This document shows positions 3,329-33,804 of a stretch of DNA of 34,615 nt, piece after piece. Below the pieces are notes generated by a model. The model saw nothing but the letters and a program-made list of their open reading frames with translations. It ran no database searches and was not told the DNA's origin. Within the stretch, counting starts at the first letter, position 1. Each line of letters begins with the position of its first letter. A program made the translations under genes and the position numbers. The stretch is from Thermoplasmata archaeon (GTDB lineage: Archaea > Thermoplasmatota > Thermoplasmata > Methanomassiliicoccales > Methanomethylophilaceae): contig JAUNYA010000001.1 in NCBI GenBank assembly GCA_030539565.1, positions 1-34,615 on the forward strand, read 5' to 3'.

Positions 3329-3963
3329 AGGCCACCGCACTGGTGGTGGCCCACGGAGCATGCGAGATCGAGTTCGTCCGTCGTCTGGACAGGCTGCTGA
3401 GGGTCCCGATACCCGTGAGCTCCCGGAGGGACGGAGGCGAGACCGTCTCCGTCAAGGGCATCCGCGGGTACCTGGAGTCCCCTCCGTTCAGGACCGTCAG
3501 GGAGTTCCGGGGGGCGTTTCCGATCGTTGGCAGTAGCTACACAGACGGGCGGCTGCTGGAGGACTTCCGCATCTTCCCGGTGCTGGACATCGACGGGGAC
3601 ACAATGAGCAGGAGGGCGTACATCACCGGCAGCATCTTCGACGGGATGGACTCCGAGCTCAGGGACATCATCGTACCGATCTACAACGACCCGAACCTGG
3701 ACGAGGTGATGGCGGAACTGGGCTATGGCAGACCCGGCATCAAGAAGACGAGAAGCTACACCGTCATGTGCGATGCAATGACGGATCCCCTCGAGCTGTA
3801 CAGGAGCCTCGAGCGCTGCGATTCCACCAACATGGAGGTGCTTCTGCGCCACATCATGTCCAGGAAGCCGGAGTACCAGTCGAGGCTGCGATGCCCGCAT
3901 CCGGGGGTATTTGAACCACATACCCCCGGGGCCTACTCATTTTTTATAGACACAATCCCGTAG
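3325..3963 (+). CDS. TOPRIM-like (RloB-like) partner of the ATPase, copy 1
   Basis: ATGA overlap with the ATPase; VVAHGACE and LDIDGD motifs, IVPIYNDPNLD. Standard-code end is TAG 3963, but similarity to the paralog ends near an in-frame CGA at 3889-3891. Confidence 0.75.
   Translation: MKATALVVAHGACEIEFVRRLDRLLRVPIPVSSRRDGGETVSVKGIRGYLESPPFRTVREFRGAFPIVGSSYTDGRLLEDFRIFPVLDIDGDTMSRRAYITGSIFDGMDSELRDIIVPIYNDPNLDEVMAELGYGRPGIKKTRSYTVMCDAMTDPLELYRSLERCDSTNMEVLLRHIMSRKPEYQSRLRCPHPGVFEPHTPGAYSFFIDTIP
3901..3929 (+). terminator. 10-bp hairpin followed by a T-run
   Basis: CCGGGGGTAT-N9-ATACCCCCGG, T-run at 3940-3945; begins 10 nt after CGA 3891. Confidence 0.5.
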
Positions 3964-3985
3964 TCTGGCCAGTGGGAGGAAACCG

Positions 3986-5032
3986 ATGGACGTACCCGAG
4001 ATAGCTGACAGGCTCGCATCCGGAGGCGGGGCCACCGACTCGGAGCTGGCCGCCCTCATAACCGCCGAGGGCGATGACCGCGAGGCCGTGTTCGCCGCGG
4101 CCCGCAGGGTGCGCGACAGGGAGTTCGGGAAGAGGACCTTCCTCTACGGCTTCGTCTACTTCTCCACCTACTGCAGGAACGAGTGCTCGTTCTGCTACTA
4201 CCGCAAGTCCAACTCCATCGACCGCTACCGCAAGACCGAGGACGAGATCGTCGATCTGGCGAGGAGCATCCGCGACTCCGGGATCAACCTGGCGGACCTG
4301 ACCATGGGCGAGGACCCGTTCATGATCCGCAACGGGTACGAGAACTTCATCCACCTGGTGTCGGCGATACGCGACGAGGTCGGCATACCCGTAATGGCAT
4401 CGCCCGGCGCCGTCCCGCACGAGGACTTCCCCAAGCTCAGGGACGCCGGCGCCGACATCGTCGCATGCTACCAGGAGACCTACAACCGCGGGCTGTTCGC
4501 GGACAGGCGCCTGGGGCAGGACTTCGACTACAGGCGCAACCAGAAGGTCTGGGCCATGGAGAACGGGATGCTCGCCGAGGACGGCATGATGGTCGGCATC
4601 GGCGAGACCGTCGAGGACAGGGTCCACACGATAAGGGAGATGATCTCGCTGGGGTGCGACCAGGTCCGCGCGATGACGTTCGTGCCGCAGGAGGGCACGC
4701 CGATGGAGCTCTCCGGGACCGTGGACTCGGTCAACGAGCTGCTGTGCCTGGCGGCCATGAGGCTGCTGAGGCACGACGTGCTGATCCCGGCGACGCTGGA
4801 CGTCGAGGGCATCGCGGGGATGCGGACAAGGCTGGACGCCGGCGCGAACGTCGTGACGTCGATCATACCCCCGGCGAGCCACCTGGCGGGCGTCGCACAG
4901 AGCAGCATGGACATCGAGGACGGCCACCGCTGCGCCGATTACGTGATCTCCCTTCTGAAGGAGATCGGCAGGGAGCCGGCCACCGCCGCCGACCTGCGCC
5001 GTGAGTTCGACAGGCGCAAGGCGCGGCTCTGA
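3986..5032 (+). CDS. pylB: Methylornithine synthase PylB (radical SAM, pyrrolysine biosynthesis)
   Basis: FVYFSTYCRNECSFCYY, DLTMGEDP, LIPATLDVEGIAGMRTRLDAGANVVTSIIPP match PylB; SD GGGAGG 3974-3979; TTTATA 3943-3948. Confidence 0.93.
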   Translation: MDVPEIADRLASGGGATDSELAALITAEGDDREAVFAAARRVRDREFGKRTFLYGFVYFSTYCRNECSFCYYRKSNSIDRYRKTEDEIVDLARSIRDSGINLADLTMGEDPFMIRNGYENFIHLVSAIRDEVGIPVMASPGAVPHEDFPKLRDAGADIVACYQETYNRGLFADRRLGQDFDYRRNQKVWAMENGMLAEDGMMVGIGETVEDRVHTIREMISLGCDQVRAMTFVPQEGTPMELSGTVDSVNELLCLAAMRLLRHDVLIPATLDVEGIAGMRTRLDAGANVVTSIIPPASHLAGVAQSSMDIEDGHRCADYVISLLKEIGREPATAADLRREFDRRKARL

Positions 5033-5157
5033 GCTCATCCTGCCGTTTCCATATCATACGCTCCAGCGCGAGCCCTGTCCCAGATTCTGGCTTATTCCCA
5101 TTTATTATGGAGATTTAACCCTGATTTAATAACAAATTGTTCTGAAATACAGGCTAA

Positions 5158-5182
5158 ATTAAATATTGCAATCGCGTTATCG
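5158..5182 (+). promoter_or_regulatory. TATA-box promoter of ATPase cassette 2
   Basis: ATTAAATATTGC and CGTTATCG at the same distances from the ATG as in cassette 1. Confidence 0.65.
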
Positions 5183-5187
5183 TCTGT

Positions 5188-32078: not shown

Positions 32079-32185
32079 CGCTCCTTCCTCTCCGGGGGCA
32101 TCCTCCTGGCGATGACCACGGACGCGCCGATGGCTATGACGAAGATCAGCGCGATGAGGATGTAGCCCAGGGTCACGTTGTCCAT
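32078..32185 (-). CDS. Small single-TM protein (35 aa if ended at CGA; 66 aa to 31985 in the standard code)
   Basis: MDNVTLGYILIALIFVIAIGASVVIARRMPPERKE; the next codon CGA shares its A with the DUF5685 ATG. Confidence 0.6.
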
Positions 32186-32319
32186 GCGACCGCAACGCCA
32201 GCGGGGTTAATAACAGGATTGCACGGGTCCTGTATATTTCTGGGGCGACGGACAATTATTAATATCCGCAAAGGTTCCGAAGCCCATCGGGCCAGCACTG
32301 GCGGGTGGATTGAAGCAAC

Positions 32320-32628
32320 ATGGCATACGACGCGAAATCCGTAGACGATCTGACAGCACTTTACGAGAGCCAGTCTCCGGCGGCTTTCATCGCCTTCGCG
32401 ATGGAGGGCCTCCCTCAGGACTACATCCACGACGAGCGCTTCGACAAGCCTGCGGACGAGGACCACGGCGGGGACTCCAAGTGCGACTACTGCTGCTGCT
32501 CCGACCGCGGATACTGCAACTCCATGGGATGGCACGCCTGCGTCGTGGGGACCGTCGTTGTCTGCTGCGCCTGCTGCTGCTACGTCACCAACGGATTCAA
32601 CGGCGTCTGGACCTACTGGCCCTTCTGA
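32320..32628 (+). CDS. Cys-rich peptide, candidate RiPP precursor / radical SAM substrate
   Basis: Acidic Cys-free residues 1-54, GG at 50-51, then 11 Cys in residues 55-87; ends 18 nt before the rSAM gene. Confidence 0.75.
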   Translation: MAYDAKSVDDLTALYESQSPAAFIAFAMEGLPQDYIHDERFDKPADEDHGGDSKCDYCCCSDRGYCNSMGWHACVVGTVVVCCACCCYVTNGFNGVWTYWPF

Positions 32629-32646
32629 GCCGCGACCCCCGCGGCA

Positions 32647-33804
32647 ATGAAGCCGTACATATCGGTCGTGGTCAAGCCGACCCTTTTCTGCAACGAATCC
32701 TGCAGCCATTGCTATCACACCCCCGAGGAGCGCGTCCCGGGGGAGATGGACATCGCCACCCTGGACCGCCTGATGAGGATGGTCTCCGAGGAGTACGAGT
32801 CCGCGTGGTTCATCTGGCACGGCGGGGAGCCGATGACCCTGCCGATGTCATTCTACAAGAACGCCATCGCCCTGGAGGAGAAGCACTTCGGGAAGAACTC
32901 CTTCCGCGTCGGGAACACCATCCAGACCAACGGCACCCTGCTGAACAGGCGCTTCATGGCCTACTGCAGGGAGAAGGCGATCAACGTGGGCGTCTCCTGC
33001 GAGGGCCCCTGCAACTCCGTCCTGAGGGAGCTGGATCCCTCCAAGGCGATCTCGATGCTCTCGGACAAGGACAACAAGTACTCCGTCAGCTCGACGATAT
33101 CGTCGCAGACCGCGCTGAGGCAGAGGGAGATCTACGAGTTCTACAGGGACCGCGGCACCAACCTGTCGCTGTCACCGGTGATCCCGGCGGGATGCGCCAA
33201 GGGCTCCGGGCTCGTTCCCGATCCGGACGAGTACATCCGCGGCAGCATAGAGGCGTTCGACGCCTGGCTCCACGACTCCGAGTCGAAGATCCCGCTGGTC
33301 CCGCATTACCTATATGTTCTCAACTACCTGGGCGACCCGACGCCGTCCGACTGCTCGCACGCGTCGTGCCTCACGAAGTGGATCTGCGTCAACCCCGACG
33401 GGACGATCTACCCGTGCGCCAAGGCGTGCCCGCCGGAGTTCGCCATGGGCAACGTCAACGAGATCGAACATCTCGCAGACGCGTTCCGCTCGGAGGGCTT
33501 CAGGAGGATCCTGGAGGGTTCCATCGCGCGCAGGGAGAAGTGCATGTCCTGCCCCGTGTACAGGAACTGCAACGGGGGCTGCTCGATGGACGCCTACCAC
33601 GACGGCGGCATCGAGAACAACAACGGCGACTCGTGCAGGATATTCCGCGAGGTGTTCGCCCACGTGTCCTCCGAGGTCCAGGCGATCCTGGACGGGGAGG
33701 AGGACGTGGCGTCGCTGAACCCGTTCGTCAGGGACGCCATCGTCGGCAAGCTGGTGAACCCCAGGACCGTCTCTCAGCGAGGCGTCCTTCCTATGTCGCT
33801 CTGA
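32647..33804 (+). CDS. Radical SAM/SPASM domain protein (anSME-like)
   Basis: [51 protein letters not shown]; first CGA at 33778-33780. Confidence 0.92.

Follow-up and report, generated by a model that had tools for sequence, protein, structure and literature searches.

Can an arginine codon end genes on the chromosome of a cellular organism? The question is raised by a stretch of 34,615 nucleotides from a Thermoplasmata archaeon of the family Methanomethylophilaceae (hereafter the window; positions 1 to 34,615 of contig JAUNYA010000001.1, assembly GCA_030539565.1). A preliminary description had noted seven open reading frames (ORFs) in it that overrun their expected ends and, in each, a first in-frame CGA at about the place where the end should be. 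It proposed that CGA acts as a stop codon, a trait thought to fit the assignment of UAG to pyrrolysine (Pyl). All seven codons lie at the positions given, and all are in frame. The CGA pattern is real, and it represents a new sense-to-stop change in which CGA is a dual codon, standing for stop as well as for arginine.

The source assembly comprises 1.40 Mb in 171 contigs, is 69% complete and has 62.5% GC. Its genus (labelled g1, with 61 further genomes) is most likely Methanoprimaticola, placed in the family Methanomethylophilaceae (PMC10684969). The release factor aRF1 of one g1 genome is 100% identical to that of Candidatus Methanoprimaticola sp. and, in a quick tree, sits in a 32-row clade with an SH-aLRT support of 99. 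In what follows, G-labels denote single genomes, g-labels genera of the family and C-labels contigs of the source assembly.

CGA at the ends of genes

When the source genome is read with translation table 11 (835 ORFs; 292,890 codons), the part of the ORFs between 20 and 70% of their length contains only 8 CGA codons, as against 246 CGG and 230 CGT, and 117 of the 250 CGAs are located in the last tenth. The coding score usually drops sharply right after the first late CGA. Gene calling with CGA as a stop gave 1,399 genes; the lack of CGA inside genes called in this way is circular and is not counted as evidence. Among the 1,122 well-scored complete genes, 878 end in TGA, 178 in CGA and 66 in TAA. 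CGA thus ends about 16%, or one in six, of the genes of this genome. Once it is treated as a stop, long non-coding tails remain in 23 of the 1,122 genes instead of 114, and the mean coding score falls from +0.27 to -0.76 across CGA ends much as it falls from +0.34 to -0.71 across TGA ends. A score-peak test for the end codon, a weak test, gave 0.52 for CGA near the end and 0.24 for CGA in tails. The preliminary description had itself objected that CGA is common in the off-frames of GC-rich DNA and would turn up by chance after any lost stop. The genome-wide pattern exceeds this expectation in the depletion of interiors, in terminal clustering and in the shortening of non-coding tails.

The CGA ends differ from the TGA ends in several respects (Fisher p < 1e-7 in each case). 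Overlaps of the CGA|TG type with a called start, which the preliminary description had suggested counting, are enriched (21/178, versus 15/878 for TGA). The base at +4 is T in 85 of 178 CGA ends (48%) versus 228 of 878 TGA ends (26%). A back-up TGA or TAA follows within 10 codons at 72 of 173 CGA ends versus 169 of 866 TGA ends; at 65 of the 173 there is none within 30 codons. Finally, CGA ends make up 134 of 562 (24%) in the lower half of the genes ranked by codon-bias score and 44 of 560 (8%) in the upper half. The back-up stops and the rarity of CGA ends among high codon-bias genes are signs that CGA may behave as a weaker stop, although the back-up stops could instead be relics of older gene ends.

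Relatives give the same picture. In loci of 23 genomes of the same genus, not one CGA was found among 72,064 internal codons aligned to source proteins, whereas six genomes of other families had 17 in 4,201 aligned internal codons, 10 of them opposite Arg. When the sampling was widened to 251 genus loci (2.0 Mb, shared in part with the first set), a single CGA turned up in 240,835 anchored codons. The queries in these homology-anchored counts were the source genome's own proteins, so that aRF1 and the ribosomal protein eL18, discussed below, were missed. The nearest relative, G009, shares 129 orthologs with the source and has no internal CGA in the 33,113 codons compared. The source/G009 end codons are CGA/CGA in 15 exact pairs, CGA/TGA in 2, TGA/CGA in 7 and TGA/TGA in 69; there are also 2 TAA/TAA and 2 TAA/TGA pairs, and 18 more ends are shifted. 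Around the CGA ends of 19 genes, substitutions at the three codon positions were 0.13/0.06/0.27 before the codon and 0.18/0.21/0.15 after it, the third-position excess being lost past CGA as it is past TGA. For 29 of 38 CGA-ended genes the standard stop of an out-of-genus ortholog lies within three codons of the CGA (214 of 249 in the TGA control), and in 32 of the 38 the CGA is closer to the ortholog's end than the next TGA or TAA. The extension of orthologs past the stop was similar for TGA and CGA ends and is uninformative. Alignment of ortholog 3' ends, proposed earlier as a check, therefore lines CGA up with TGA or TAA and reveals exchange in both directions; along with the G009 pairs and the loss of coding score, it marks CGA as a real gene end, genome-wide and genus-wide.

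Within the window, six of the seven terminal CGAs have ortholog or paralog support as gene ends; the AAA ATPase (site b) is without an anchored ortholog. Site a is a gene of 188 residues (3325..3891, plus strand) that ends in CGA 3889-3891, the next standard stops being a TAG 24 and a TGA 39 codons further on. Its 193-residue paralog (6546..7127, plus strand) has an in-frame TAG at 6690-6692, likely Pyl, and terminates in TAA, seven codons beyond the CGA position. A terminator-like hairpin followed by a T-run (3897..3932, plus strand; predicted -22.6 kcal/mol) comes directly after the CGA. The paralog's end and the hairpin bear out what had been noted at this site, but its "TOPRIM-like" label was not confirmed, no Pfam or NCBIfam family being found for the product. 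At site b, the gene for an AAA_14 ATPase (16983..17870, minus strand) has its first in-frame CGA at 16985-16983 and a TGA 11 codons later; G009 lacks a gene at this place. Site c encodes an aldolase of the ADH synthase family, 264 residues long (18004..18798, plus strand; PRK07226, residues 2-263 on model positions 4-265 of 267), with CGA at 18796-18798 and TGA 16 codons on. In G009, the ortholog (97% identical) carries TGA in the place of this CGA; TGA or TAA lies within two codons of the position in 28 of 29 other loci, and the remaining one has CGA and then TGA. The macrodomain protein of site d (259 residues; 18843..19622, plus strand; PRK04143, residues 7-259 on positions 5-260 of 265) ends in CGA 19620-19622, 180 codons ahead of a TGA. 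Its orthologs have TGA or TAA one to five codons on in 13 of 14 cases, one has CGA at +1 and its next stop at +144, and the ortholog in G009 ends in CGA two codons later. At site e, a Cys-rich gene of 77 residues (30948..31181, plus strand) ends in CGA 31179-31181, which is kept in G009; the next stop is a TAG 328 codons away. Convergent with it is a DUF5685 gene (31173..32078, minus strand) with a TGA end here and a CGA end in G009. The ATG of this gene overlaps the CGA of site f (32080-32078), the end of a gene for a hydrophobic peptide of 35 residues (32078..32185, minus strand; TGA 31 codons on); G009 shares the CGA|TG overlap, and the upstream peptide is conserved. Site g, a radical SAM/SPASM gene of 377 residues (32647..33780, plus strand), has CGA at 33778-33780 and TGA eight codons on, and an out-of-genus ortholog has its stop at offset 0. 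A Sir2-family gene (19606..20451, plus strand), like the DUF5685 gene, ends in TGA here and in CGA in G009.

The range of the trait was surveyed with ab initio table-11 gene calls on 60-200 kb per group. In G009, 38 of 164 genes have CGA close to the end of their coding part; the figures are 8 of 58 in G123 and 9 of 90 in G013 taken with record L079. The deep genus members G008 and G015 have it in 3 of 136 and 3 of 118 genes, with 4 core CGAs in 77,402 codons. Outside the genus, the figures are 5 of 234 in g20 and 0-1 in g10, g18, g19, g22, g25 and g27. Terminal use is thus graded across related groups, from about 23% of genes through 10-14% and 2% to none. Core CGA is absent from g20 (68,499 codons), g10, g18, g25 and the sampled part of g19; g22 has 21 in 29,590 codons and g27 has 28 in 19,388. 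Frequent terminal CGA is limited to part of one genus; the interior purge and the CGA in aRF1 extend more widely. Genus g20 (L166, L229-L237, L431-L434) groups with a record named Methanomethylophilus sp.; its tRNA-Arg(UCG) stem is intact and its aRF1 has CGA at codon 25. Possibly CGA is a rare stop in g20 too.

CGA inside genes, its tRNA and the release factor

The preliminary description had found no internal CGA. This holds for the window contig, where a six-frame scan of every CGA for coding-like flanks gave no candidate, but not for the genome and the genus, which keep a few; across the source genome the scan produced 8 candidates, 3 of them judged credible as internal. Among the relatives, one gene that keeps CGA is that of the release factor itself. 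The aRF1 gene was found in 58 of the 61 genus genomes, and CGA occupies its codon 78, which aligns in an Arg column, in 46 of 48 genus loci counted without dereplication. Among 80 named records, 78 have a CGA in the N-domain (36/36 in the genus clade, 42/44 in the rest of the family); counted per genome, the figures are 11/11 for the genus and 15/18 for other family genomes. The Arg codon concerned differs by lineage (11, 25, 27, 50, 78 or 123), and 92 of the CGAs in the 80 records fall in the N-domain and 7 after it. The factor's own gene thus has one feature expected of release-factor autoregulation, a conserved early in-frame codon, here CGA, at which translation may end. Two incidental points emerged from the same records. 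Several contigs titled as bacterial (L080, L081, L083, L090-L092, L095, L121) carry aRF1 genes that fall within this archaeal family, and their titles or bins look wrong. The aRF1 of G005 (L257; assembly contamination 8%) looks chimeric, with an N-terminal part like that of another genus and CGA at codon 25.

A second conserved case is codon 30 of the eL18 gene: 29 of 29 genomes have CGA there, and one of these genomes belongs to another family. The surrounding DNA (L187:7763-8122, L402-L430) is almost invariant in the 29 genomes, third positions included, and a stem-loop of 4 bp is predicted to begin at the CGA region. The region is likely an old mRNA element that keeps the CGA, and hence its tRNA, essential. 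The third case is a gene encoding GmhA joined to GmhB, present in the source genome on contig C51 (L281:2315-3376) with CGA at the junction. The junction falls exactly between the family models, the isomerase ending at residue 193-194 and the phosphatase beginning at 193. Of the 30 best genus loci, 28 have CGA at the junction and 1 has AGA; in the last, the CGA is one codon earlier. Twenty further loci, hand-chosen for a listed internal stop or for genus spread, have TAG (6 genus genomes), TAA (1), CGA (1), Lys (10, non-genus) or CGA one codon earlier (2, both g20). The TAGs could simply be Lys-to-Pyl changes. The source GmhA frame has no ATG, GTG or TTG at its expected 5' end (L281:2327-2345), and GGAGGT precedes other codons there, a possible non-standard start.

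Two more genes of the source genome have a single internal CGA: an ArsR-type regulator on contig C83 (L282:1860-2180), in which the CGA stands at an Arg and is not conserved (1 of 11), and a gene at C59:556 (minus strand) that we take to be a reverse transcriptase. These two CGAs are perhaps recent arrivals or mutations. Taken together, CGA marks gene ends and also occupies conserved internal residues, as in a dual stop/sense code. It is not in widespread internal use with an outcome set by position, since internal CGA is limited to few sites, and it is not absent from all conserved internal positions, as a complete sense-to-stop change would have it, since aRF1, eL18 and GmhA|GmhB keep it.

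Loss of tRNA-Arg(TCG), one of the checks suggested in the preliminary description, did not occur: the gene is present (C162:2896-2970 in the source genome) and kept, and its anticodon arm is altered. A pattern search over 174 family genomes gave 61 matches, in which pairing was counted by eye. The 31:39 pair is unpaired in all 34 genus matches (16 A.A, 18 C.A), as well as in four further genus copies missed by the pattern, and paired in all 27 others (4 of them by G.U). The deep genus members G008, G015, G127 and G007 (L347-L350) have 31:39 paired, C33 for U33 and a 27:43 mismatch. Loss of the gene from G008 and G015 was considered and rejected, because a covariance model recovered it from both genomes, as it did from G127 and G007; among the matches inspected for G006 it did not appear. 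Compensatory changes at 7 pairs of the other stems among 13 related sequences indicate that the gene is maintained, and the tRNA retains Arg-type features. From general tRNA structure, changes of this kind in the anticodon arm are expected to slow decoding. No viral contig matched the tRNA pattern. The tRNA and aRF1 genes are thus both present across the genus, decoding by the former being predicted from sequence. In aRF1, all 80 of 80 records have Met or Leu at the position of human Arg68 (offset +3); g26 and two outgroup families have Arg there, and a third outgroup family has Gln. Human eRF1 Arg68 contacts rRNA and matters for termination (PMC3632111, PMC4605324), and the replacement is a candidate for a functional change.

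How CGA may be read

That CGA ends these genes in practice we regard as very likely. How it does so is less so. Probably CGA is a leaky fourth stop, at which aRF1 outcompetes a tRNA-Arg(UCG) predicted to be weak, the CGA in the aRF1 gene likely acting as a feedback sensor. The two would compete for CGA in the ribosomal A site; aRF1 would usually win and terminate the chain, and occasional read-through with Arg would make the stop leaky. More aRF1 would mean more early termination within the aRF1 mRNA, closing a feedback loop, and the CGA at the GmhA|GmhB junction would yield free GmhA plus the GmhA-GmhB fusion. Such competition is the simplest account and, if it takes place, would explain the interior purge, the terminal use, the leakiness, the retention of the tRNA and why, of all genes, it is aRF1 in which most lineages have an early CGA, at shifting positions. 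The likely history is that CGA began to act as a weak stop at an early point in the family, most of whose genera carry an N-domain CGA in aRF1; that several genera then cleared it from gene interiors; and that one GC-rich part of the genus took it up as a common end through TGA-to-CGA changes. We are inclined, if only slightly, to extend this to the whole family, likely including cultured Methanomethylophilus, which would then run a self-tuning code: aRF1 would read CGA as a fourth stop and sense its own level by it, and the weakened tRNA would set the ratio of stop to Arg, with CGA ending up to a quarter of genes and drawing two proteins from one gene.

Several observations weigh against this view. 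The CGA in eL18, an essential ribosomal protein, must be read through to a substantial degree, which a simple strong stop cannot explain. Neither aRF1 nor eL18 was found in the 69%-complete source assembly, and both points rest on relatives, which are related to one another and hence not independent samples. No match to the tRNA-Arg(UCG) pattern was obtained in 27 of the 61 other genus genomes. The changes in the NIKS, GTS and YxCxxxF motifs of aRF1 that the preliminary description had suggested looking for are not there: GTx, NIKS and YxCxxxF are intact, and the genus-specific residues 17, 76, 142, 250 and 270 lie outside the codon-binding motifs. Met or Leu at the Arg68 position is common to genera that use CGA as Arg. 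According to the paper on the human structure (PMC4605324), a C in the first position is compatible with neither the U-turn nor the bond to Lys63. Lastly, 6 of the 38 CGA-ended genes fit their orthologs better at the next TGA or TAA.

The preliminary description had left three options: reading by the release factor, an unassigned codon, or editing of CGA to UGA. The first is the best supported, as an inferred reading, provided that CGA is taken as a dual stop/Arg codon and not as a plain stop. An unassigned CGA is at odds with the presence of tRNA-Arg(UCG) and with CGA at invariant Arg codons of aRF1 and eL18. Site-specific C-to-U editing of terminal CGA to UGA would suit two codons that are one change apart and swap freely. 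But off-frame CGA is not avoided (observed/expected 0.88 for NCG|A; 23,631 NNC|GA observed versus 24,569 expected), so that an editor would need knowledge of the frame, and neither the tRNA defect nor the CGA in aRF1 would be explained; we find editing most improbable. A different reader is conceivable: CGA might be a hungry codon at which the weak tRNA stalls the ribosome and rescue by Pelota with aEF1-alpha, or by another hydrolase, frees the chain without aRF1. The tRNA defect is clear-cut while the codon-binding motifs of aRF1 are unchanged, a pelota gene is present, and structure argues against a C at position 1. Rescue nevertheless remains unlikely, for it is in aRF1 that the conserved internal CGA sits, family-wide, whereas the single pelota gene parsed (that of G008) has none. 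The CGA|TG overlaps (21/178) and the +4 T bias resemble ordinary termination and re-initiation. Ribosome rescue usually destroys the mRNA, moreover, and fits CGA ends inside operons badly.

The strong read-through that eL18 requires would be easier to accommodate if the meaning of CGA depended on position, Arg early or in some contexts and stop near the gene end (cued by the 3' end, a downstream start or a U at +4), as in ciliates with ambiguous stops. The kept internal CGAs do have C or G at +4 (CGA-C in aRF1; CGA-G in eL18 and at the junction), terminal ones favoring T, but C or G also follows 83 of 178 terminal CGAs, and a codon safely read inside genes would not be purged to 1 in 240,835 anchored codons. 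Such a code, partly compatible with a leaky stop, seems to us a shade less likely even than rescue. One could also regard CGA as a very slow Arg codon tolerated near C-termini, followed by a junk tail to the next TGA or TAA; the enrichment of back-up stops (72/173 within 10 codons), the 6 of 38 genes that fit better at the next stop and the Arg-type features of the tRNA would agree with it. This has very little probability given the 65 of 173 ends without TGA or TAA within 30 codons, the window tails of 180 and 328 codons, and the conservation of terminal CGA while the sequence downstream loses its codon pattern. As to a faulty assembly or a sequence altered in this genome alone, the pattern recurs across many independent genomes and across records deposited separately, and the exchange of CGA and TGA in both directions among orthologs excludes it for practical purposes.

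Pyrrolysine, neighboring genes and known codes

TAG is very probably read as Pyl in this genome, a trait already known as archaeal code 34 and independent of the CGA ends. The machinery of that code is in place: a tRNA-Pyl (C16:738-807), a synthetase-family match also on C16, and PylB in the window (3986..5032, plus strand; TIGR03910, 416 bits versus a cut-off of 348); neighboring genes we take by eye to be pylC and pylD. In-frame TAG occurs in 21 of 1,399 genes, including the paralog at 6690, and few genes end in TAG, as expected of code 34. Among 12 listed genes with a TAG past codon 40, the coding score is clearly positive after the TAG in 7 and not in 5. Some TAG-containing genes are presumably methylamine methyltransferases. 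The link between UAG reassignment and the CGA stop drawn in the preliminary description turned out to be weak. CGA ends align with TGA or TAA, not with TAG, and the two traits separate across genera: internal CGA is missing from G172, where TAG nevertheless ends 13 of 72 genes, and g22 has internal CGA with a single TAG end in 96 genes. Reassignment of TAG is therefore not the cause of the CGA ends, and replacement of TAG by CGA was also rejected. G172 (L173, L238-L240) is unlike its relatives in its TAG ends; core CGA is absent from it (19,008 codons), and its tRNA-Arg(UCG) has a 27:43 mismatch.

Other features of the window deserve mention. Two copies of an AAA_21-type ATPase gene with a small partner gene flank pylB (2057-3891, 5188-7127), a layout that in our reading recalls AbiEii/RloB-like pairs. 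The macrodomain (PRK04143) and Sir2-like gene pair (18843-20451) is patchy in the family (15 of 121 genomes). Further along lie a tRNA-Arg(CCT) gene (20473..20550, minus strand), which reads the dominant AGG codon, and a gene for an HFX_2341-like protein with a weak CARF match (20719-21567). A small Cys-rich ORF directly upstream of the SPASM radical SAM gene (32320-33780) likely forms a peptide and maturase pair with it.

If true, the scheme favored here would show a sense-to-stop change still under way outside organelles, and CGA would be a natural stop without a first-position U that is read by an eRF1-type factor. It would challenge the rule that a U in the first position is required by eRF1/aRF1, and it would point to release-factor autoregulation in archaea. 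With its graded stages, a chromosomal case in common gut archaea opens the ambiguous-intermediate model of code evolution to tests in cultured organisms. In practical terms, table-11 gene calls for the genus misplace the C-termini of up to a sixth or a quarter of proteins, and a CGA stop escapes code-inference tools because they do not infer stops. Full-text searches, outside which most subscription papers lay, turned up no publication in which a CGA stop is established for any cellular genome.

The closest parallels are the sense-to-stop changes of organelles, namely AGA/AGG in vertebrate mitochondria, UCA in Scenedesmaceae mitochondria and UUA/UCA in peDinoflagellate plastids (PMC12574857); this 2025 paper calls the plastid case the first outside mitochondria. 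There, as here, a sense codon stands at homolog-defined gene ends and is cleared from interiors. The organelles use bacterial-type release factors, often visibly altered, whereas the present case concerns the chromosome of a cellular archaeon and an eRF1-type factor; the codon is CGA, it still means Arg at a few conserved sites, and its tRNA is kept. Measured against a complete sense-to-stop change, the location at gene ends is found here and the loss of the cognate tRNA is not. For two Njordarchaeales assemblies, the author of bioRxiv 10.64898/2026.04.02.715157 reports CGA to be absent from conserved domains and raises a possible stop. That order differs in having CGG as Trp and no tRNA(UCG), and gene ends are untested there; here CGG aligns with Arg and has its own tRNA, tRNA(UCG) is present and use at gene ends is shown. 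In low-GC bacteria, CGA/CGG have become Trp and CGG has become Gln (PMC8629427, codon details via bioRxiv 10.64898/2026.04.02.715157). CGR Arg codons change meaning in both settings, from sense to sense in the bacteria and to stop here, at 62.5% GC. Archaeal code 34 (bioRxiv 10.1101/2024.09.30.615893) was described in the same family, with Pyl machinery, in-frame TAG in and outside methyltransferases and almost no TAG ends; it relies on TGA and TAA as stops, and "cga" occurs 0 times in the text of that report.

Two systems resemble the proposed mechanism itself. The eRF1 of S. cerevisiae releases peptide at CGA in competition with a weak tRNA, and a single terminal CGA gives some release (PMC7379694). 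In yeast this is a low-level error on reporters, aided by L123 mutants, and natural genes are not ended so. Autoregulation of a release factor by an internal stop is known from the frameshift of bacterial RF2 and from the eRF1-like genes of Mimivirus and Megavirus (PMC3521657), although that 2012 paper states that it is absent from archaeal and eukaryotic homologs. As in those cases, the factor's own gene holds an early codon at which the factor would terminate. In RF2 and the giant viruses, however, the codon is a standard stop bypassed by frameshift or read-through, whereas a sense codon with a tRNA of its own to read it would serve as the sensor proposed here.

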